19,785 bases of DNA from IMG/VR virus record IMGVR_UViG_3300000301_000085; one strand, written 5' to 3'. How positions within the stretch are numbered: position 1 is the stretch's first letter; each line of letters opens with the position of its first letter. Of this stretch, positions 3,607 to 19,785 are shown piece after piece. This DNA is from a virus. Its lineage: Duplodnaviria; Heunggongvirae; Uroviricota; Caudoviricetes. The notes beneath the pieces were generated by a model that saw only the letters and a list, made by a program, of their open reading frames with translations, did no database searches and was not told the DNA's origin. The position numbers were made by a program, and so were the translations under genes.

Positions 3607-4884
3607 TCAGCCCTTTCCAGACGCTCTGCTTTTGTGNNNNNNNNNNNNNNNNNNNNNNNNNNNNNNNNNNNNNNNNNNNNNNNNNNNNNNNNNNNNNNNN
3701 NNNNNNNNNNNNNNNNNNNCAAGCAAGCTATTTACACGCTGGAAGTCATACATTTTTGCGGCACCAGATGAATTATCGATTCCCTGTGCGTTGTCCTGCT
3801 TCGTTCGCTCACCAGCTACACCAACTGAATGGTAGATTTCGTTAATCACCGTCTTAATCGTAGTGATGATCATCTGAGCTTGTTTCGGGTCTGGTGACAG
3901 ATAAAACGGCTGGTTTCCACCTTCAGAATCGTAGGTGAAGACTCGCTTTGTGCCCATTTCAAGCACTTTAGTGTGGTTTTCATCACCAGGTAAAAGCGAC
4001 TGTACCGGTATAGCCAACTGGCTAAATGTCTGATCCTGAATAATGGCATCAAGGTTTGACAGATAGTTTGCAACCGCACGATCAAGATAAGCGATATCAT
4101 CGATCAACGATGGGCTGAAATACGGTGATTCACTTTCTCCAATACAATCAACAGGAAACACAGGAACTACGCCGAGATTATGCTCACCGCTATCCTCTAA
4201 AATAACTTTTGCCTGACGGCGACCTGCTCCACCAGCGCCCTTCTTCACTTCCTCACGGAACAGATACCACTCGTTTTGTGTCCACAGACGATAACGTTGG
4301 TATTCCTGACCTGTAGAAGTAAAAGGATCTGCGTCATCACGAGCGACTTCCACAATTAACGCCCACAACATATTCCCGTCGTCGTCCCATGCCACATCAA
4401 GCATTTGCTGAGGTGAAATCCAGTAGGCGTAGGCGCGAGCATCTTTCTTTTTCTCGTCAGCTACTGACTCAACATCACCACTCATCGTGCTATCGACAAC
4501 AACCCATATGCGACCGTAAATAGACGACTGCAAATCAATAGCGGCCATAAATGAGTCAATAGAGGCATTCTGGCGAGTCGCACGTTTCCAGAAATTGCGG
4601 ATCTGCTCTGGTGCCTCTTCGATATTTCTATGAATGTCTTCTTTAAAGAGATATTTGTTGATGAGGTTTACCACCTCACGAGTGTGGTTGAAGCGATAAG
4701 CACGTTCAACTCGCTCCTTAAACTCCTGATCTCCCTCTTTAAAGTAACGAAAGATATTGTCTGTAAACCAACCACGCCCGCCAGCGTAAGTGCTGGCGAG
4801 GAAGTCCCAATGTTCTTTTTTCTTTTCGTATTCCGGGTGGCGTCGCGCCACCAGATCCTTAATTTGTTTGTCGTTCAATTCCAT
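3607..4884 (-). CDS. putative portal protein
   Basis: 425-aa ORF immediately downstream of terminase large subunit; TAAGGT SD before ATG 4884. Assignment by synteny and size. Confidence 0.6.
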   Translation of the reverse strand: MELNDKQIKDLVARRHPEYEKKKEHWDFLASTYAGGRGWFTDNIFRYFKEGDQEFKERVERAYRFNHTREVVNLINKYLFKEDIHRNIEEAPEQIRNFWKRATRQNASIDSFMAAIDLQSSIYGRIWVVVDSTMSGDVESVADEKKKDARAYAYWISPQQMLDVAWDDDGNMLWALIVEVARDDADPFTSTGQEYQRYRLWTQNEWYLFREEVKKGAGGAGRRQAKVILEDSGEHNLGVVPVFPVDCIGESESPYFSPSLIDDIAYLDRAVANYLSNLDAIIQDQTFSQLAIPVQSLLPGDENHTKVLEMGTKRVFTYDSEGGNQPFYLSPDPKQAQMIITTIKTVINEIYHSVGVAGERTKQDNAQGIDNSSGAAKMYDFQRVNSLLXXXXXXXXXXXXXXXXXXXXXXXXXXXXHKSRASGKG

Positions 4885-4910: not shown

Positions 4911-6167
4911 CTATCGTGAACCACCAAGAATAACACGGTTTTTGACTGGATACCTACGATGTACTGGATAGCCCAATGCGTCTGCACTATGCTCAATGCC
5001 ACCTGTCTTATCCATATCTCGTGTTCCAGGCTTGTAGATGACTTTTTCCAGTGAATCAATCAAATGCTTGCACTTCGGATCGATATACAGCCGGATATCT
5101 CCAGATGCGGTCATCAGCATTCGGTTAACAGCATTAACACGATCCGCAATTGGCGGGTGCTTTTTCGAATAATCGACACGTAAGAATCCCTTCTCTTTGA
5201 ATATGTCGACGTCAGACTCCCCGCGAGCATGTTGGCGATAAGCACCTGCCGGATCTGGAAATACCGTTATCTGTGATTTCCAGCGCCAGAAGCGTCTCTC
5301 AAGCTCATCACAAACCTCTGCCGTGTTAGAGGAAAAGAGCACCAATTCATCAATTGCCCATAGCTCACCATTTGGCTGAGGTTGCAAAATTACTGAAGAC
5401 ATCGGGTCAATGTTGAAGTCCTGCCCTACCCATATAGGCAACCGAGGGTTGAACTGAAGCGGTTTTACATGCACGTTACGATCGAACGGGTAGTAAACGC
5501 GCCCGGACATGTTCTCAAAGCTCGCCAGGTACTCCTGAGCGAACGATTTCGGGTCCATATCGTTCTTAGCAGCTTCAATTTCCGCCGTAGGTACAAACGG
5601 AGAATCGGCAGTTACAAACTGCCAGCTCTTCCACTGTCCCTTTCTTTGCAGCTCTACGTTCTGGCCTATAGTCCACAGTTTGTGAAATTCCGAGAAGCCT
5701 TTTGGCGTACCAATGATCAGTGCACCGCCGCGTGTCGATGAAAGAGTAGGTCGTAACACCTTGTACCAGGTGTCAGCCTTCATATCCTGAAATTCATCAA
5801 GCACTACAAAATGCAACGCTACGCCGCGCAGAGTGTCAGGCTTATCAGCACCTTTGAGGGCGATCTCCGAACCGTTCTTCAACACGATTGTCATCGTGGT
5901 GTCGTTCTTTTTCCTAACCCACTTACGAGGCAGAACTTCCTGTAGATCGTCCCACAAAATCTGGCGAGCCATCTGGTATGTAGGAGCGACATACCAGACC
6001 CTTTGCTTTTTTTCCTTTGCCGCCGCACGAATAATAGTGGAGATCGACAACCGGGATTTTCCCCAGCGTCGACCAGCACAAACAACTTTAAATCGATGCG
6101 GAGACTGGAAGACTTTCATCTGTCCAGAATGCAGTTGCACAAGACTGAGCGAGGACGGGATTGCCAT
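4911..6167 (-). CDS. terL: terminase large subunit
   Basis: Walker A VCAGRRWGKS, Walker B-like LHFVVLDEFQD, LIIGTPKG, C-terminal nuclease-like acidic motifs (VGQDFN, IEHSADALGY); start overlaps upstream stop (TAATG at 6165-6169). Confidence 0.9.
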   Translation of the reverse strand: MAIPSSLSLVQLHSGQMKVFQSPHRFKVVCAGRRWGKSRLSISTIIRAAAKEKKQRVWYVAPTYQMARQILWDDLQEVLPRKWVRKKNDTTMTIVLKNGSEIALKGADKPDTLRGVALHFVVLDEFQDMKADTWYKVLRPTLSSTRGGALIIGTPKGFSEFHKLWTIGQNVELQRKGQWKSWQFVTADSPFVPTAEIEAAKNDMDPKSFAQEYLASFENMSGRVYYPFDRNVHVKPLQFNPRLPIWVGQDFNIDPMSSVILQPQPNGELWAIDELVLFSSNTAEVCDELERRFWRWKSQITVFPDPAGAYRQHARGESDVDIFKEKGFLRVDYSKKHPPIADRVNAVNRMLMTASGDIRLYIDPKCKHLIDSLEKVIYKPGTRDMDKTGGIEHSADALGYPVHRRYPVKNRVILGGSR

Positions 6168-6799
6168 TATTCGTCCTCCCCTTCACTTCCATCATCTGTC
6201 GCATCAAATTCGCTTAGAGCTTCTTCTTCCAACGTCTCAAGCAATTCGTCATCGATGATTTCAGGCTCGTCGTCTTCCTGACGTAATTTCGCCACCTGGG
6301 AAGGCGTAAGCTCACCAAATACCAGGTTCGGAATTTCTTCCTCGTCATTTTCCGCATGATCCATGCCCAATGCTTTGGACGAAACTTCAAAGCATTTTGC
6401 AAGGGTATTACTGGCTCTCTGTAAGCTCTTGAGAGAATCCTCAATCGCCACTAAAGGCTTACCCTCACGTTTGGCCGTAGTGACTTCGACCATCACCATC
6501 TGCCCCAACGCATACGCCCAGCCGTCATAACGTGTACGACGTTCTTCTATCTTTTCCGCACGGGCTTTAGCGCGAAGCTCTGCGTCAGATTTAAGAGACT
6601 CACGAACCATCTTCCCAACAGAGTCCGCGCCTTTCTCTAATCCTCGCTTTTTGAAATGTCTGGAGAGTGTTTCACGACGAATGCCGTACTCTTCCTCCAG
6701 CTTTGAGAGTGTATATTCGCCTGACGTCCATTTGGCTTCAGCTTCGGCCCACTCCGCTGGTGTCAGGCGAGTTTTTACCTCGTCTTTTTCGACCGTCAT
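6167..6799 (-). CDS. terS: putative terminase small subunit
   Basis: 210 aa, N-terminal HTH-like segment (TLSKLEEEYGIRRETLSRHFKKRG), strongly acidic C-terminus, translationally coupled to terL. Confidence 0.6.
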   Translation of the reverse strand: MTVEKDEVKTRLTPAEWAEAEAKWTSGEYTLSKLEEEYGIRRETLSRHFKKRGLEKGADSVGKMVRESLKSDAELRAKARAEKIEERRTRYDGWAYALGQMVMVEVTTAKREGKPLVAIEDSLKSLQRASNTLAKCFEVSSKALGMDHAENDEEEIPNLVFGELTPSQVAKLRQEDDEPEIIDDELLETLEEEALSEFDATDDGSEGEDE

Positions 6800-6838: not shown

Positions 6839-6879
6839 AAAACAACTTGTTTACTGCATCTGCTAACCAACTTGTTTTC
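6839..6879. promoter_or_regulatory. two copies of the AACAAcTTGTT palindrome (operator-like) in the late-operon leader
   Basis: AAAACAACTTGTTTA at 6839-6853 and ACCAACTTGTTTTC at 6866-6879; same core as elements upstream of the small genes at 16.6-19.7 kb. Confidence 0.5.
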
Positions 6880-8316: not shown

Positions 8317-9064
8317 GAATGGACCTCATCATGAATACCATTGTGATATTCCACCTTCACGCGTTCTTTGTAGTGCTTGGTGATCTGCATATCAGGGCGC
8401 AGCGCGTTCTTCAGGTCTTCGTGAGTCGTCGCCACCATTACCGTCGCACCAACCTTTCGAGCGGCACGCTGGAGGTTAGACGCCACAACCTGAGCGGTTA
8501 CACGGTCGAGAACAGCGCCGAACTCGTCAGCAGCCCATACTTTAGCGCCTGACTCAATCAGTTTGGCAATCTTGAGACGATATTTCTGGCCGTCTGACAT
8601 TTCAGAAGGCTTGCGAACAAACAGATATGCATCGTTCAGACCAGCCATAGATANNNNNNNNNNNNNNNNNNNNNNNNNNNNNNNNNNNNNNNNNNNNNNN
8701 NNNNNNNNNNNNNNNNNNNNNNNNNNNNNNNNNNNNNNNNNNNNNNNNNCGCATCACTGGTCGTTTTGCCCAACTGATCGATGACGTTAACCTCATTATC
8801 GAAGGTAAAATCATCGATGGAGGCTACAGACAGCCCTTCATCCTTCATCTGTCGTTGCAACTCGCGCAGCACAACGGATTTGCCGGAACCGGATTGGCCG
8901 GTGATGTACACCACATCGCCCTGCTTCACTTCCAGCTCCAGATTGTCGTAAAGCGTCCACTCTTTTTCGTCCAGGCCAAGCCCGAACGACTCAGCGATTT
9001 CCAACGTGCGCGTGGTTTTATTTACGCGTGTCTGAAACGATACGTTGATGATGTATTTGCTCAT
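8313..9064 (-). CDS. ABC-type ATPase (nucleotide-binding-domain-like, ~250 aa; two ORF segments, frame changes at masked segment 8654-8749)
   Basis: Walker A YITGQSGSGKS; signature-like SDGQKYRLKIAKL; Walker B/D-loop VWAADEFGAVLD; H-loop MVATTHED; ATGA coupling to the ParB-like gene at 9061-9064. Confidence 0.7.
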
Positions 9065-9729
9065 GCAGCCATCTCCCCGGAAGAGATCTTCTCCGCATAT
9101 GCCACAAATGCGTCTACCCCGCTTTCTCCCGTCATTTCTTCCATATGGGCAAGCAAATCACCAACAACAATGGCAGAGCCAGCAGGGAGCGTTTTAAAGC
9201 CCAATACGTCGACAACACGTACTTCTTCCGCTGCAACTTCACGACTGATCTCGGTGTGTTCATCCTTCTGTCGTTTAGTTTCTTCGCCAAGATCGATAAC
9301 TAGCGAGTCGGTGTCCATTTCTTCTGTCATACTGCCAACGAGAACATTCAACTCACGCTCTTCAAAGCCGAAAACCTCGATATCGTCCAGAACAAGCGAC
9401 TCAAGCTCTTTCTGTAGCTTAATTGCATCGTAATCAATGCTGGCAAGTCGGTTATCTTCAAGGCGCTTCGCACGAACCTCGTCATCACTGAGATCATCGC
9501 GAACAATAACCGGTACGCGCTCAAGTCCAGCAAAAATTGCAGCCTCACGGCGGCCGTGGCCAGTAATAATTACGTCGTTCTTATCGACCGTAATTGGCTG
9601 GTCAAATCCGCGCTTTTTAATGGCTGCGGCCAGATCTCTGATCTGCTGTTCATCATGCTTTTTGGCATTCATCTCATAGGGAATAAGATCTGCCGGGTCG
9701 CGATATACGATTTCAAACTTTTTGGTCAT
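9061..9729 (-). CDS. ParB/Srx-like N-terminal-domain protein (paralog 2)
   Basis: ITGHGRREAA (GxxRxxA ParB box); ATG at 9729-9727 overlaps the upstream stop (TAATG). Confidence 0.75.
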   Translation of the reverse strand: MTKKFEIVYRDPADLIPYEMNAKKHDEQQIRDLAAAIKKRGFDQPITVDKNDVIITGHGRREAAIFAGLERVPVIVRDDLSDDEVRAKRLEDNRLASIDYDAIKLQKELESLVLDDIEVFGFEERELNVLVGSMTEEMDTDSLVIDLGEETKRQKDEHTEISREVAAEEVRVVDVLGFKTLPAGSAIVVGDLLAHMEEMTGESGVDAFVAYAEKISSGEMAA

Positions 9730-10409
9730 TACATACGCTCCTTGTAGTAGTCGACCAGCCACACCAGAGCCTCACCAGCGTTCTCCATTTCATTACCGGT
9801 GTTAATAGCCTGCTCTTTGATGATGTTTTTTATGGTTTCTGCAACACGATCTGACGCATCGAAAGTTACTTTGAAGCGCATGGTCTGATGTTCCGCACCC
9901 ACACGTTCGGTTTTCTCTCGTTTGTCGGTATCGACAGGCTCATCACTACCACGAGACAACGCCTCCAGTGCTTCAAGGTCGATTGCCGCCTCTTTTGCTA
10001 AAACCATCGAGATTTCGTCGTCATACGGAGCGATTTCAGACAGTTGATAGTCAAGTTCTGACTGAATTTCTTCAATGAAGCGTTGCAATGCGATTTGGTC
10101 GTCTTCACCGTATCGCTCGTTGTCCACCAGTGACATCTGTTTAGCTACGACATCGCTAATTTTGCCCACAGAAAGCACCGGAACCGTTGAAATTCCTTGC
10201 TCAATAGCAGCACGCCAGCGATGTTCACCGCCGAGGATTTCAAAAAATCCATCTTCAAGTTCACGAGCCAAAATTGGCTTAAAAAAGCCCAATTTTTCGA
10301 TAGAACCTTTCAGTTTTTCAAAATTCTGCGCACCAACCGAATTGGTGTTCCAGGTATTCGGGCGAAGGTTGGCAACATCAACCTGCAAAATCGTGATTTT
10401 TACATCCAT
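9729..10409 (-). CDS. ParB/Srx-like N-terminal-domain protein (paralog 1)
   Basis: ILGGEHRWRAA ParB box; ATG 10409 preferred over GTG 10427; first gene of the leftward operon. Confidence 0.75.
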   Translation of the reverse strand: MDVKITILQVDVANLRPNTWNTNSVGAQNFEKLKGSIEKLGFFKPILARELEDGFFEILGGEHRWRAAIEQGISTVPVLSVGKISDVVAKQMSLVDNERYGEDDQIALQRFIEEIQSELDYQLSEIAPYDDEISMVLAKEAAIDLEALEALSRGSDEPVDTDKREKTERVGAEHQTMRFKVTFDASDRVAETIKNIIKEQAINTGNEMENAGEALVWLVDYYKERM

Positions 10410-10491
10410 TTTATTGCTACAATCCACTAAGTAATCACTTACTTATTATAATAGCCAAATAACATACAAAAGGCACTAAGGAAAGAGGTTT
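10410..10491. promoter_or_regulatory. divergent promoter region with palindromic operator-like site
   Basis: TATAAT at 10447-10452, palindromic with its minus-strand counterpart; inverted repeat TAAGTAA-TCAC-TTACTTA at 10428-10445; AAGGAAAGAGG SD before ATG 10492. Confidence 0.5.
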
Positions 10492-12131
10492 ATGACTGTT
10501 CGGATTGTATCTAACGCAGTAAATGCGCTTATTTCTGGCGCAGATGACAAGGTAAAGCAACTGGTGCAGCAAATGTTGAGCTACGAAGTCGAGACTGGCG
10601 ACTGGAAGGGCACAAGCACGATGTTCAACTGGAGTAAAAACTCGTTCCCTGCTGGCTTTGCCAAGCCTGTAGCGGCGAACTTGAACAAGGCGGGCATCAA
10701 ATGTGTTCATATCCGCAAAGACAAAGCCCCGGCGCTTGGTAAACCAAATCCGGCGGTTAACCCATTCCCATACAATCCTGATTATGCATATCAGGATCAG
10801 ACTGTGGAAACACTGGTTCGAGAGGGAATGATGATTGCGCAGATCGCTACTGGTGGCGGGAAATCTAACGTTGCCTGCAAAGCAGCTGCACGTATCGGTC
10901 GAATGACATTATTTTTAACAACCCGCTCTGTTCTGATGTTTCAAATGGCCGAAAACTTCCAGAGATCCATCGACTACCGCGCCGAAAATGGCGAACCGTG
11001 GTTAAAAGACCAAAAGGTTGGAGTCATTGGCTCGGGTGAGTTCCAGGTATCACGACATATCAACGTCGCTACAGTTCAAACTCTGGCAAGTTTCCTTGAA
11101 GAACCACCACGCGATGCAACACCAGATAAAAAGAGCTACCACCTCAAACGTCGGGAGCTAGTGAAACGCTTCCTTTCAAGTGTGTCTCTGCTTATTCTGG
11201 AAGAAGCGCATGAGTCTTCAGGCTCTAATTTCTATGACATTGCCAGATTATGTGTGAACGCAGACTATCGTCTGGCGCTTACGGCCACGCCGTTCATGAA
11301 GGATTCTACAGAAGCCAACATGCGTCTGATGGCTGTGGCCGGTCGAATTGAAATTAAAGTCACAGAAAAGTACCTGATTGATCGAGGCATTCTGGCAAAA
11401 CCGTACTTCCTTTATCATAAAGTTGCTTACAAGCCAGACGAGGTCAGAATCAAGGCGGAACTTGCCAACAAACACCTTAATTTTAGAGTTGGTATGAGCA
11501 CCGCCTACCAAAAGGCTTATCAGTTGGGGATCGTGTATAATTTGGGACGTAACNNNNNNNNNNNNNNNNNNNNNNNNNNNNNNNNNNNNNNNNNNNNNNN
11601 NNNNNNNNNNNNNNNNNNNNNNNNNNNNNNNNNNAGGCCATAGTGCGCGAGGCATTGCTTTATAAGCAACATTCACTCAACTGCATGACTCTGGTTCGTC
11701 TTAAACGCCACGGGCAAATCCTGATGGAGATGATGAAGGAGTCAGGTCTTAAAGTTGATTTCATCTATGGGGAATCTAACCAGACGACAAGGCAAGCAAA
11801 GCTGAATAGTTTAGCGTCTGGTGAAATAGATGTTTTAATAGGCTCGACTATTCTGGATGTTGGTGTTGATGTGCCAAGCGTTGGTGCGGTCATTCTTGCT
11901 GGTGGTGGGAAAGCAGAAGTTGAAATGAGACAGCGTGTCGGTCGTGGCTTACGAGCCAAAAAAAATCAGGCAAACGTGTGTTTTATCACTGATTTCATTG
12001 ACATTAGCAACAAATACCTGTTGTCTCACTCTTATGAGCGAAAACACATCATCGACACCACACCTGGCTTTGCAGAAGGTGTATTGCCTATTGATGGAGC
12101 ATTCGATTTTGGAGTTCTGAAACGAGATTAG
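10492..12131 (+). CDS. superfamily-2 (DEAD/DEAH-like) helicase; two ORF segments across masked 11554-11634
   Basis: Motif I IATGGGKS; motif II LILEEAHES; motif III LALTATPF; C-terminal motif VI QRVGRGLR; ~110-aa N-terminal extension. Confidence 0.8.
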
Positions 12132-14262: not shown

Positions 14263-14913
14263 ATGGCTAACATTATCATTTCTAAAAAATCCATCGTTGA
14301 AGCTGCTTCCATTGTATCCGATGAACTGCGCGAAAAAGCAGATCTGGCAACTCAAACATATAACGAACATTATAAAAATGGTACGCACACTAAAGCAGAC
14401 AAAGCAAATATGCAAGCTGCGACCACTAAACTTGCTTACTTCATCAACAACGTTGTAAACGCTGTAGAAGACGAAAAATTATGCTCTGTTTTCTACTATG
14501 CGATTAAAGCAAGCAAACAAGCGCCAGAAGTATTTTTCCGTGATGCAATGACTAATAGTTATTCTCTGGAAAAACTGGTTTATCTGGTTAAATCCATTAA
14601 AGCTGGCAAATGTGTTTATTCCGTCGCTGATATGTCAGGATCTCGTGTATTCGCTTTAATCGATATGATTAACGACGAGATCGACACGTTCACCAATGGC
14701 GCTGTTTTCGATTTAATGAATGAAGCTAAAAAAGCGTGTGAAATTAAATTGGACGCTGGCTATACTCAAGCCAACCAGTTGATCAATCTTTGCGAACGTC
14801 TTGGACTTGTTGAAAAAGTCAAAGGAGCTGGGAGCGCGAAAGCTGGTACTCAGCAATATCGCTTCATTAAAAATGATTTCTACAATTATTTAGCTGATGC
14901 TTTCAAAGCGTAA
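14263..14913 (+). CDS. hypothetical protein (216 aa), predicted to be highly expressed
   Basis: TAAGGAA SD 8 nt before ATG; AT-rich but uses host-preferred codons (GCT, GAA, AAA, ATC, TTC, CGT/CGC); no recognisable catalytic motif. Confidence 0.7.
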   Translation: MANIIISKKSIVEAASIVSDELREKADLATQTYNEHYKNGTHTKADKANMQAATTKLAYFINNVVNAVEDEKLCSVFYYAIKASKQAPEVFFRDAMTNSYSLEKLVYLVKSIKAGKCVYSVADMSGSRVFALIDMINDEIDTFTNGAVFDLMNEAKKACEIKLDAGYTQANQLINLCERLGLVEKVKGAGSAKAGTQQYRFIKNDFYNYLADAFKA

Positions 14914-14925
14914 TTAATGGAATCA

Positions 14926-14944
14926 AGCGCCCACTATGGGCGCT
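14926..14944 (+). promoter_or_regulatory. intergenic hairpin (attenuator-like), no U-tract
   Basis: AGCGCCCA-CTA-TGGGCGCT directly after stop 14913 and before SD AAGGAG; a second copy (right arm TGGGCGCTTTTTT) emerges from the mask at 15520-15535. Confidence 0.4.
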
Positions 14945-15186: not shown

Positions 15187-15567
15187 ATGTTTGTTCTTAT
15201 CGCTGGCGTTAACGTCCATAATGAATATTATGTTAATCGCATCGCTGGGATAGCTGGTTACGCTGGGCGCTCAGTCGAGTTTATCGATGAAACAACGCGT
15301 AAAATTGATTTATTGAGCGACCAGGAGCGAAAAAAAGCAGACGTGAACGACGCTGATATATTTTTAATGTTAAAAGCGTTTGTAGAAATGGGATTTAAAA
15401 TCAGTTTACACAAATNNNNNNNNNNNNNNNNNNNNNNNNNNNNNNNNNNNNNNNNNNNNNNNNNNNNNNNNNNNNNNNNNNNNNNNNNNNNNNNNNNNNN
15501 NNNNNNNNNNNNNNNNNNNATGGGCGCTTTTTTCGTTTCCAATACTCCCACCATAACGCGCCAATGA
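15187..15567 (+). CDS. hypothetical protein (3' end uncertain, masked 15416-15519)
   Basis: TAAGGAG SD before ATG 15187; N-terminal 76 aa readable; the post-mask tail may be out of frame. Confidence 0.45.
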   Translation: MFVLIAGVNVHNEYYVNRIAGIAGYAGRSVEFIDETTRKIDLLSDQERKKADVNDADIFLMLKAFVEMGFKISLHKXXXXXXXXXXXXXXXXXXXXXXXXXXXXXXXXXXXMGAFFVSNTPTITRQ

Positions 15568-15584
15568 TGGCGCGTTTTTTATTG
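15555..15584 (+). terminator. intrinsic terminator
   Basis: AACGCGCCA-ATGA-TGGCGCGTT followed by TTTTTTATTG. Confidence 0.6.
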
Positions 15585-15829
15585 TCTTTAACTCACTCCA
15601 ACAACATAAAAATAAGCGCCCAAATAACGCCATAGACGCGCTTTTATATCCTTACCAGTACATACCCATTACTTAACACATTAACGCGCTTAAAACGCGT
15701 TATATTGCGCTATAACGTATGGCTAATCATTGGCTTTTATTCTTGCTATGTGATCCGTGTTTATTTGTCGGCGCGGATCGGCATTTTGTGTTGTTCTGTA
15801 TCCGCTCGCGTATTATGTGCGCGTGATTT

Positions 15830-15872
15830 TTCACATAATCACACCACTTAATCACGTATGTGATTACGCTAC
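15830..15872. promoter_or_regulatory. cluster of TAATCAC/GTGATTA half-sites (operator-like palindromes)
   Basis: GTGATTTTTCACATAATCACACCACTTAATCACGTATGTGATTACGC; TAATCAC-N4-GTGATTA inverted repeat. Confidence 0.35.
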
Positions 15873-15994
15873 GAAAGAAATCTGGATGTCTCAGGTGACG
15901 AAAGTCATCATAATTTTCCCCGCTCACCTGTCCGACAACCGCTGGTTGGATTCCACCAGCTTCCCGATGTTTTTTCTACATAAAGGCGAATGCA

Positions 15995-16108
15995 GCCGTT
16001 TCCCGAAAAAATCCTGGCCGTTTCCCGTCGGCTCATGAATACGTTCCTCGCCGTTTCTGAAAATTTCCCTGCGGCAGCTGGTGGCTATAGAGAAAGGGCC
16101 GTTTCTGG
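15995..16108. repeat. four direct copies of CCGTTTC(C/T) (iteron-like)
   Basis: Copies at 15995, 16018, 16051 and 16099, in noncoding DNA between convergent transcription units. Confidence 0.35.
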
Positions 16109-16111
16109 CCC
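16096..16111 (-). terminator. terminator-like hairpin after gene 16121..16603
   Basis: GGGCC-GTTTCT-GGCCC; the minus transcript continues UUUCUCUAUAG. Confidence 0.4.
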
Positions 16112-16120
16112 TATTCTCAG

Positions 16121-16603
16121 TTACACGCCATCAAGGATGTGGATGCGGTTGCTTGCGTATACATTCAGCATAAAGTTAGCGCAAAACAGTTTCCATGTGT
16201 CAACGCCAGCGGTATACGTAATGTTTTTGCATTTAATCGCATTGTTGGCGATCCGCATCCCCTGCGATACTGCTTCATCGTCGGAAAATTTGAACGACGA
16301 TTGAGTTTTAATCCAGACAGAAATCTGCGTAGCGAACTCAATCAGCTTGGACTGGCAGAATCGCCCGGAGCGCACCGGAAAGACGAACGTTCCGAACCCA
16401 GAATTTACCACATACGCTTTCTCAAATACCCGCGAGTAACGACGATTGCCAATGATGTCGCGTGCAATAATGCATTTTTCTTGTGCTGACAGTTCTACCG
16501 TCTCATTGTCGCGCCATGCACCAAGTACTCGTTTTTCAATGTCAGAGAACGTTACAGCGATATTGCCATGTGCGGGTGCGTTTACAGTAGCGATAAAATT
16601 CAT
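16121..16603 (-). CDS. hypothetical protein (160 aa)
   Basis: AAGGAA SD before ATG 16603; own promoter/operator element upstream. Confidence 0.6.
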   Translation of the reverse strand: MNFIATVNAPAHGNIAVTFSDIEKRVLGAWRDNETVELSAQEKCIIARDIIGNRRYSRVFEKAYVVNSGFGTFVFPVRSGRFCQSKLIEFATQISVWIKTQSSFKFSDDEAVSQGMRIANNAIKCKNITYTAGVDTWKLFCANFMLNVYASNRIHILDGV

Positions 16604-18894: not shown

Positions 18895-18904
18895 TTGATT
18901 GTGA

Positions 18905-19234
18905 TTACGCGAATACCTCAAGAAACTCCTGAACGTCCCAATGCTGGACGAGGTGAAGATAGACCTTAGAAATCACGTCATTTTCGCTATCGCATGTGAA
19001 GTAGTACTTCTGGCTGCGGTTGTATGTGTCCACACAAAATTCGCTCATATCCATAAAGTCAGCATCTTCACCCATGTCGCAAATCATCAAAGCAGGTGCG
19101 TCATCACGAGTCATCAGCTCAAGCACCCACCGCGAATTGATCAGAGTGGAAGACCAACCTTCTAACTCATAAAACTGATCAAACTCTTTTTGAGTTAATT
19201 TCTTGATTTGGTTGATGTCGATATTTGCAAACAT
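18905..19234 (-). CDS. small acidic protein (109 aa)
   Basis: AAGGA SD 7 nt before ATG 19234 (MFANIDINQIKK...); D/E-rich (MICDMGEDADFMDMSEF). Confidence 0.55.
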   Translation of the reverse strand: MFANIDINQIKKLTQKEFDQFYELEGWSSTLINSRWVLELMTRDDAPALMICDMGEDADFMDMSEFCVDTYNRSQKYYFTCDSENDVISKVYLHLVQHWDVQEFLEVFA

Positions 19235-19310
19235 AAAGCAATCCTTAAACAACTTGTTTTCTGAATTGCGTAAACAATACCAGTAAGAAAACGGCCACAA
19301 AGTATATCGT
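19235..19310 (-). promoter_or_regulatory. cassette promoter plus AAACAAcTTGTTT palindrome (element E4)
   Basis: Minus strand TTTGTGGCCGTTTTCTTACTGG-TATTGT then AAAACAAGTTGTTT overlapping the SD. Confidence 0.5.
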
Positions 19311-19373: not shown

Positions 19374-19670
19374 TTAATCTTCGTCGTCCGGGAACTCGCT
19401 GTGTACCGCGCCCACCAGCTCCCGCTTTTCATCTTCACTCAGCAGGTGCCAGATATNNNNNNNNNNNNNNNNNNNNNNNNNNNNNNNNNNNNNNNNNNNN
19501 NNNNNNNNNNNNNNNNNNNNNNNNNNNNNNNNNNNNNNNNNNNNNNNNNNNNNNNNTTCTGCCGGGACGAACGACCACAACTTGCGGTACAACTCCGGCC
19601 CCACTGCATCCAGACACTCAGCCAGGGAATCCACGCCCCACACCTCAACCGTCACAGGCATCTTAATCAT
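19374..19670 (-). CDS. small acidic protein (about 98 aa, middle masked 19457-19556)
   Basis: GAGGA SD before ATG 19670; acidic C-terminus EFPDDED. Confidence 0.5.
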   Translation of the reverse strand: MIKMPVTVEVWGVDSLAECLDAVGPELYRKLWSFVPAEXXXXXXXXXXXXXXXXXXXXXXXXXXXXXXXXXXIWHLLSEDEKRELVGAVHSEFPDDED

Positions 19671-19750
19671 CTCTTCATCCTCACTTCGTTTCTATAACGT
19701 CTAAATATGTTGTTTACTTGTTGGTGTTATTATCGAAATAAGACAAAGGC
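19671..19750 (-). promoter_or_regulatory. cassette promoter plus AAtAtgTTGTT palindrome variant (element E5)
   Basis: Plus-strand AAATATGTTGTTTACTTGTTGGTGTTATTATCG, near-identical to E1 and E2. Confidence 0.45.
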
Positions 19751-19785
19751 GAAAAAGGATTTTATGTCGGGAAAGCCAGGCTTGG

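Follow-up and report, generated by a model that had tools for sequence, protein, structure and literature searches.

We analysed a 19,785-nucleotide stretch of DNA, virus record IMGVR_UViG_3300000301_000085 (the window), which is part of an SSU5-like E. coli phage-plasmid. A gene-free gap of ~600 bp between convergent genes (15520-16120) carries an array of short direct repeats with conserved cores and helical-turn spacing, and a sister array of the same repeats lies ~4 kb away. Judged from its sequence, the array is most likely a docking site for a DNA-binding protein rather than the known origin of the plasmid or its packaging site. We give a probability of about 0.65 to a DNA-level protein-binding array being the right class of explanation. 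A narrower reading, a phage-mode replication-control element in the form of a bipartite origin or enhancer, is put forward tentatively.

The stretch from 15520 to 16125 is 100% identical to plasmid pTHO-010-2 (NZ_AP022542.1, IncFIB, 113 kb; 'record' positions below) and 96-98% identical to phages Cyrano, PhiR41_1 and CMS-2020a. The synteny of the gap is retained in 770 PLSDB plasmids and 12 phage records at 66-78% identity, the carriers being Escherichia, Klebsiella, Enterobacter, Salmonella (pHCM2, SSU5), Yersinia pestis (pMT1), Citrobacter and Cronobacter. For comparison 92 loci were collected, their gaps were dereplicated to 49 and a diverse set of ten, pairwise 56-89% identical, was drawn up. 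The most distant relative found, L091, encodes a 160-amino-acid neighbour of the gap that is 51% identical to the one in the window.

Direct repeats in the gap

The sequence CCGTTTCY is found at only four places in the window (15996, 16018, 16051 and 16099), where 1.1 are expected. Read on the - strand, the repeat unit is YNSRGRAACGGCCAGR, ~16 bp long, with the invariant core G-R-A-A-C-G-G. The first three copies, r1 to r3, are iteron-like and are followed by a half-iteron, the counterpart of which in L091 is a full iteron, GCCGTTTCCCTGCGG. The fourth CCGTTTC copy forms the loop of the terminator of the gene at 16121-16603, and its core is not kept in relatives L020, L037, L053 and L091. Since it is a terminator loop with a core that is not kept, we left it out of the repeat count; all four direct CCGTTTC(C/T) repeats listed in the initial annotation are thus present, but only three of them are iteron-like. 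The copies share one orientation and start at 0, 22, 55 and ~65 bp, spacings that are multiples of ~11 bp, and because of these starts they are predicted to lie on one face of the helix.

The repeat cores are 89-96% conserved and the block as a whole is 73-80% identical in pairwise comparison. The corresponding figures are 32-67% for the four-fold sites of the flanking genes and 25-44% for the mosaic segment of the gap. L091 keeps two repeats 34 bp apart although the rest of its gap has been replaced.

The sister array

A matrix constructed from r1-r3 only has 18 matches of at least 10 bits in the 113-kb genome. The best non-self matches form a single cluster (record 80669-80766) of five, scoring 12-20 bits on the same strand and spaced 22, 22, 31 and 22 bp apart. 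They mark a sister array of six copies at NZ_AP022542.1 80655-80774, ~190 bp past the end of the window, with spacings of 22, 22, 21-22, 31-32 and 22 bp. With this matrix SSU5 displays the same two clusters. Both arrays, on one strand, are found in all 12 loci that are long enough, at a distance of 3.1-4.0 kb in 11 and of 5.2 kb in L091. Over these 12 loci and both arrays 32 of the 70 spacings equal 22 bp and most of the others are 31-34, 43-44, 53 or 66 bp. In the sister array the clades have different spacer sequences but the same spacing. Each array is placed directly behind a - strand terminator, which is upstream of it on that strand. When the gap was compared by BLAST with the rest of the genome for longer paralogy, terminator hairpin T1 (Table 1) was the only part repeated.

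We read the arrays as protein-binding sites in DNA because their spacing follows helical turns, their cores are invariant although the spacers vary freely and they are shielded from transcription. The iteron-like character that the initial annotation gave the direct repeats is borne out by cores invariant across clades, by the ~11-bp multiples and by the sister array. The same evidence bears on the simplest alternative, in which the gap is a mere spacer with terminators and its repeats and Chi octamers are functionless, inherited by descent. All members of the family are related, so shared sequence is expected, and Chi is frequent throughout the element. Against this, conservation of the repeat block is far above that of the flanking four-fold sites, the repeats persist where the remainder of the gap has been replaced, their spacing outlasts changes of spacer sequence and a paralogous array exists. 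We regard a functionless spacer as improbable.

The sister array is contained in a 1.55-kb unannotated, family-conserved stretch, which comprises 19590-19785 of the window and continues beyond it (NZ_AP022542.1 80269-81818; L086:30269-31818). Upstream of the array on the - strand there are a terminator and ~800 nt in which G is scarce (A 41%, C 30%, G 14%, T 16%). This sequence has four GCCATTACYC motifs at intervals of ~100 nt and opens with an operator-like site.

Chi octamers

The window contains nine Chi octamers (0.31 expected), at 4229, 7096, 11898, 15953, 16077, 16783, 17262, 19358 and 19412. The enrichment is genome-wide, with 29 copies in pTHO-010-2 against 5.1 ± 2.3 expected and 31 in SSU5 (NC_018843.1) against 8.0 ± 2.4. 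Two of the copies face outwards around a block of 125 bp that holds the repeats. The left one occurs in 45 of the 49 dereplicated gaps, 42-89 bp from r1, at three positions, one for each mosaic allele. The bracketing pair is never found in the opposite orientation in the 49 gaps. Given the polarity of Chi, RecBCD that enters from the left or the right would encounter an active Chi shortly before it reaches the repeats. Such strong enrichment suggests that the element relies on RecBCD-proof linear intermediates, which would matter for its transfer and engineering. Terminator hairpins, GGCCACCAnnnnTGGTGGCC, hold several of the Chi copies in their arms, and a flip of the loop there moves Chi to the other strand.

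Replication origin

A P1-type oriR at repA (record 112.7 kb to 1.6 kb), ~37 kb from the gap, serves as the plasmid origin; it has DnaA boxes TTATCCAC, AGATCC heptamers and an incA-like array. The RepA iterons, AWCCACTRTAGAGAG, are 19 bp long, spaced by 21 bp and located between record 112.8 and 113.3 kb and between 1.15 and 1.64 kb. They are unrelated to the repeats of the gap, GRAACGGCCAG, and we rejected the gap as the RepA oriR or incA locus. The initial annotation had offered a replication origin as one function of the gap; the plasmid origin is at repA, with unrelated iterons, and to that extent the proposal is not upheld. A second, phage-mode origin or control site in the gap is possible. 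Both arrays consist of direct repeats in one orientation with a period of ~22 bp, the feature by which Rep-type iterons are recognised. Among the genes of the element are T4-like ones for replication, encoding a gp32-like single-stranded DNA-binding protein, a UvsW-like helicase, a DnaB-like helicase, a primase and Pol III alpha. We know of no lytic origin for an SSU5-type element.

The explanation that we favour can be put as follows. The functional core would be 15973-16084. A sequence-specific protein of the element would bind the two arrays cooperatively, and together they would act as a second, phage-mode replication-control element, either an origin or an enhancer pair. The promoter-like sequence at 15786-15816 and the allele-specific leader after it, which here bears TAATCAC palindromes, may couple this activity to a clade-specific regulator. 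A more elaborate version, in which two Chi-guarded, insulated arrays and a winged-helix binder make up a second iteron system that serves as the lytic origin or as a switch between plasmid and phage replication, seems doubtful to us.

A number of findings weigh against a role in replication. Only ~10-16 bp of each 22-bp unit are conserved, less than in classic Rep iterons. An AT-rich unwinding element is missing next to the repeats, where the GC content is 0.47-0.53; the lowest value in the gap, 0.37, is ~250 bp away from them. The search for DnaA boxes in the gap returned one relaxed, chance-level match (15827), in the clade-specific segment, the IHF consensus is absent from the gap and the cumulative GC skew has no extremum there. 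SSU5 has no right-hand Chi, and at genome scale the polarity of Chi switches near repA (in SSU5) and not at the gap, which is why we regard the Chi bracket as a functional feature that is suggestive only. In addition, 71 of the loci (L014-L084) were fetched by a pattern that spans r1 and r2, so that the conservation of these two repeats is partly ascertained in that subset. The loci found by BLAST (L001-L013) and those found by protein (L091 and L092) are free of this bias.

Packaging

The initial annotation also considered a packaging site. One form that we weighed has the gap as a pac or cos site where the small terminase would bind the phased repeats and the pair of GATC sites would provide Dam control in the manner of P1 pac. 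Phased repeats and GATC-containing GTGATC motifs do faintly resemble the pac sites of P1 and SPP1, and the GATC pair has a correctly oriented Chi 200 bp to its right. Nothing, however, places pac in the gap. The genes terS and terL (4911-6799) are separated from it by 9 kb, with an operon of opposite orientation in between. A P1-type pac would lead one to expect clusters of Dam-methylatable hexamers around an IHF site, close to the terminase genes; the gap has two GATC sites only, a count not above chance, and the pair is absent in three clades. The Chi pair has the wrong orientation to protect ends made between the two sites, and the sister array has no such context. The + strand cluster of Chi to the right of the gap was considered as a sign of headful ends and rejected: it is present in pTHO-010-2 and not conserved in SSU5. 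Packaging is accordingly a highly improbable function for the gap.

Candidate binding proteins and partition

To the left of the gap a short + strand operon, which ends near 15420, encodes the UvsW-like helicase, an FljA-like regulator, a protein of 216 amino acids and small open reading frames (ORFs). To the right is a long series of small - strand genes, of which the first (16121-16603) encodes the 160-amino-acid protein. The model of the latter is confident and has no match to a known fold. The 216-residue protein (14263-14913, phrog_1513) is encoded two genes from the gap, is conserved throughout the phage-plasmid family and is restricted to it. Its model (predicted local distance difference test score, pLDDT, 87) displays a long helical hairpin and a C-terminal helix-turn-helix with a beta wing. 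The Foldseek matches are weak (E 0.03-0.4), all of them to winged-helix domains (MukE/F, Orc1/Cdc6, RTP and PadR), and sequence searches of both proteins against the PDB gave no match. We consider this coiled-coil and winged-helix-like protein the nearest candidate for binding the array. The UvsW-like DEAD/DEAH helicase is split between two ORFs here (10492-11643 and 11643-12131) and is a single gene of 1560 nt in relatives, which may reflect a frameshift or a deletion.

Further candidates come from partition. The element encodes a 222-amino-acid ParA-type ATPase (type Ib; record 36558-37226) with a partner of 117 amino acids, and two ParB_N proteins (9061-10427 of the window); the ParA partner and the ParB_N proteins are all candidate binders. 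The arrays might then be centromere-like or pairing sites for the small binding protein of the type Ib ParA system or for ParB_N. In favour of this, type Ib/II centromeres typically consist of phased short direct repeats with neither an unwinding element nor DnaA boxes, the two arrays are shielded from transcription, the flanks of the par operon have no obvious repeats, and the genes around the gap are expressed in a Cyrano lysogen (PMC9928086). Against it, the gap-repeat matrix has no match near record 36-37.5 kb and no copy is found at the par promoter, whereas type Ib systems as a rule regulate themselves through repeats that resemble the centromere. The arrays have the phased short repeats of such centromeres but not the location at the par operon, which is ~40 kb from the gap, and the 16-bp unit and 22-bp period are more reminiscent of Rep iterons than of contiguous 4-11-bp centromere repeats. 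We think a partition role rather unlikely.

Promoter-like element and TAATCAC sites

The -10 hexamer of the promoter-like element is kept as TAT(T/C/G)AT or TATAGT in 49 of 49 gaps. The element is a match to the consensus only, and its 19-bp spacer is longer than optimal. It invites an explanation modelled on P2-type repressors, in which the repeats are an operator or roadblock array that controls this promoter or read-through of the - strand terminator, and the gap would be a regulatory border separating the convergent units. The conserved -10 is consistent with this, as are the allelic leader that follows, which is typical of immunity-type modules, the spacings of two and three helical turns, which resemble those of P2-family operators, and the FljA-type regulator of the upstream operon. 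The repeats, on the other hand, are 180-270 bp downstream of the putative promoter, which is itself no more than a consensus match with a long spacer. No conserved promoter was found within or beside the gap repeats and none comparable to that of the gap near the sister array. An operator function is in our view unlikely.

TAATCAC occurs at 15836 and 15849 on the + strand and at 15860 on the - strand. These are three of the seven copies in the window (2.3 expected), a total that was reached by two of 200 shuffles. They belong to an inverted repeat (15812-15819/15832-15839) and a 7-4-7 palindrome (15849-15866). The TAATCAC/GTGATTA inverted repeats pointed out in the initial annotation therefore exist but are confined to the mosaic allele of one clade: three TAATCAC and the palindrome are present in 15 of the 49 gaps, a single copy in 24 and none in six. 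The palindrome TAATCAC-N4-GTGATTA occurs once in the 113-kb genome, and comparison of the genome's 19 TAATCAC sites gave no longer consensus in common. TAATCAC as a genome-wide repressor operator was rejected on the grounds that the palindrome is unique, that there is no wider consensus and that only 15 of 49 gaps have it.

The half-sites had also been linked, as a single hub, with two distant positions. The first link was a recurrence of the 11-mer TGTGATTACGC at 18897-18907; the copy is actually at 18900-18910, overlaps the stop codon of a - strand ORF (18905-19300) and is near chance, two or more matches with one mismatch allowed being obtained in 11 of 200 shuffles. The second was a TAATCAC-centred palindrome at 10428-10445, where the arms are in fact AAGTAA/TTACTT around TCAC, a different site. 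With one link at chance level and the other to a different palindrome the proposed hub is not supported. The valuable part of the module is the insulated iteron array with its sister, not the TAATCAC palindromes, and the kind of element is a known one.

In the divergent promoter between the ParB_N and helicase operons (10428-10452) the palindrome AAGTAATCACTTACTT overlaps TTACTTATTATAAT. A near-identical TTACTTATTATATA is present in another intergenic region (NZ_AP022542.1 35351-35364), and TTACTTATTATAAT/TTACTTATTATATA may be a shared phage promoter motif.

Coding and RNA content

ORFs of at least 25 amino acids were sought in six frames of the ten diverse gaps, and none is kept in place, frame and sequence; the only recurrent frame has a 17-nt deletion in pHCM2. 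The initial view that the gap holds no convincing ORF is confirmed. Could the gap instead specify a noncoding RNA, either a + strand transcript of the promoter-like element whose 5' part is clade-specific and which is an antisense or immunity RNA directed at the 160-amino-acid gene, or a purine-rich - strand RNA with GGA-type repeats that titrates an RNA-binding protein such as CsrA? The conserved promoter-like element speaks for the former, and the 161-nt leader folds well in this clade (z = -5.1); in nine other clades z is -2.7 to +0.3, and no + strand terminator follows. Each gap has 9-16 GGA on the - strand against 3-6 on the + strand, but this excess is explained by base composition (p = 0.02-0.46) and we rejected a CsrA-type sponge. 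Consensus folding in sliding windows on both strands gave weak energies and no covariation inside the gap. A search of Rfam 15 returned no matches at the gathering score, the best sub-threshold one being Hrs1 (32 bits against 56.4) on the T1/T2 hairpins. The recurrence of 11-bp multiples in the spacings, moreover, points to DNA and not to RNA. We judge an RNA product quite improbable, and the sequence of the gap indicates that it encodes neither a protein nor a structured RNA and is a cis-acting DNA module.

Terminators and other features of the gap

The features of the gap are collected in Table 1. The hairpins and terminators facing both ways that were noted initially are present: the scan gave nine terminator-like sites where 2.3 are expected. 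T1, T2 and the right-hand terminator have the attributes of intrinsic terminators, namely a GC-rich hairpin, a T-run, a stem that is kept and a loop that is free to vary. In the 49 relatives the loops flip and there is one compensatory stem change, in the right-hand terminator, where GGGCC/GGCCC covaries with GGGGC/GCCCC. T3 may terminate in both directions, and at its position other clades have a different hairpin, AAACGCG...CGCGTTT. The left side of the gap has three + strand terminators and the right side a single - strand one, by which the gap is predicted to be shielded from outside transcription. A second copy of the T1 hairpin (AGCGCCCActaTGGGCGCT) is found at 14925-14943, directly 3' of the 216-amino-acid gene.

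The local palindrome at 15682-15702 is specific to this clade; the counterpart of 15676-15722 in other clades is made of AGCGCGTTTT-type units. In L091 the middle of the gap (L091:6730-6850) has been replaced by nine tandem 8-bp units, TTTAGCNN in the + strand orientation of the window, after which there are three GATC sites within 30 nt.

Table 1. Features in and next to the gene-free gap, in window coordinates
Feature	Position	Strand	Remarks
Run of 104 N	15416-15519		Longer than the 16-17 nt (TAAAATCGAGCGCCCACT) of close relatives, which comprise the TAA stop of the upstream small gene and the T1 left arm (AGCGCCCA)
Terminator T1, right arm (TGGGCGCT) and T-run	15521-15533	+	Stem near-invariant in 49 dereplicated relatives; loop flips ACTA/ATAG
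Terminator T2, AACGCGCCA-loop-TGGCGCGTT and T6	15555-15582	+	Stem almost invariant; loop varies or inverts among relatives
Third hairpin T3 (AAGCGC...GCGCTT)	15614-15647		A-run before, T-run after; pairing read from sequence
Conserved 15-mer GTACATACCCATTAC	15658-15672
(A/T)-tract and CGCG short repeats	15676-15722		Period ~10 bp; the ACGCG hairpins of the initial annotation
Two GATC sites, 24 bp apart	15752-15779		15752 site kept in 7/10 diverse relatives
Promoter-like element, TTGTGT, 19-bp spacer, TATTAT	15786-15816	+	Consensus TTGnnn-19-TATnAT
Mosaic (allelic) segment	15817-15971		At least three alleles; 25-44% identical between clades
Left Chi, GCTGGTGG on - strand (CCACCAGC on +)	15953-15960	-	Outward-facing
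Conserved block TTTCTACATAAAGGC	15973-15987		Adjoins the repeats
Iteron r1, CGGGAAACGGC	15995-16004	-	10/13 core columns invariant in 10 diverse clades
Iteron r2	16017-16026	-	22 bp from r1
Iteron r3, CAGAAACGGC (CAGGAACGGC in Klebsiella clades)	16050-16059	-	33-34 bp from r2
Half-iteron TTTCCCTGCGG (- strand CCGCAGGGAAA)	16064-16074	-	In phase, ~65 bp from r1
Right Chi, GCTGGTGG	16077-16084	+	Outward-facing; 39/49 dereplicated gaps, 80-83 bp right of r1
Intrinsic terminator of - strand gene 16121-16603, AGGGCC-AGAAAC-GGCCCT and TTTCTCT	16088-16112	-

Two observations concern other parts of the element. Firstly, the palindrome AAACAA-NN-TTGTTT occurs at 6840, 16624, 17109, 17859, 18762 and 19247, giving nine strand matches where 0.07 are expected. 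Most copies are just upstream of - strand gene starts, that of terS included, and the gap has none; its positions suggest an operator or 5'-leader element common to several genes. Secondly, outside the window NZ_AP022542.1 82736-86027 carries the chromosomal pair metG-apbC (mrp) as cargo, and the apbC homologue is annotated in Cyrano as a septum site-determining protein.

Implications

SSU5-like phage-plasmids, to which Y. pestis pMT1 and S. Typhi pHCM2 belong, are common in clinical Enterobacteriaceae and contribute to the spread of resistance genes. Hardly any work has been devoted to their switch from low-copy plasmid to phage replication or to their segregation, and a literature search found no paper that mentions these repeats. 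The conserved, insulated pair of arrays offers a concrete cis-acting target and a bait for its binding protein.

Comparison with known systems

The arrays share several properties with Rep-type iterons (P1 incC/incA, F, RK2, R6K and the 12-mers of Vibrio chrII): direct repeats in one orientation, a dominant 22-bp period with occasional extra helical turns (33 or 44 bp), more than one array per replicon and shielding from transcription. They differ in that the gap units are conserved over 10-16 bp only and that neither an unwinding element nor a DnaA box, IHF site or recognisable rep gene adjoins the gap array.

Type Ib/II centromeres (R1 parC, pB171 parC1/parC2) likewise have phased short repeats in two arrays, a small ParA and a small partner, and the phage-plasmid N15 provides a precedent for dispersed centromere sites. 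The present arrays are, however, away from the par operon and its promoter, and their units are longer and separated by spacers. The operators of P2-family C repressors, direct half-sites two or three helical turns apart, are comparable to gap repeats 22 or 33-34 bp apart, but flank the -10 of a promoter, whereas the gap array has no conserved promoter inside it. Chi is frequent in the phage-plasmid P1 too. Here two copies face outwards around the 125-bp block, an arrangement that may have functional meaning.

Pairs of origin and enhancer that form a bipartite unit are known for P4 and SPP1. For the element studied here no initiator like alpha or G38P was found, and the sequence and spacing of its repeats differ from those of P4 and SPP1. 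By analogy, the arrangement nevertheless resembles the ori and crr of P4, 4.5 kb apart with octamer repeats for the alpha protein, and the oriL/oriR of SPP1 with their G38P boxes: clusters of the same repeat are a few kilobases apart, and one of the clusters may lack an obvious origin signature. If the more elaborate version given above is true, a bipartite element like P4 ori/crr would exist in a family that includes pMT1 and pHCM2.

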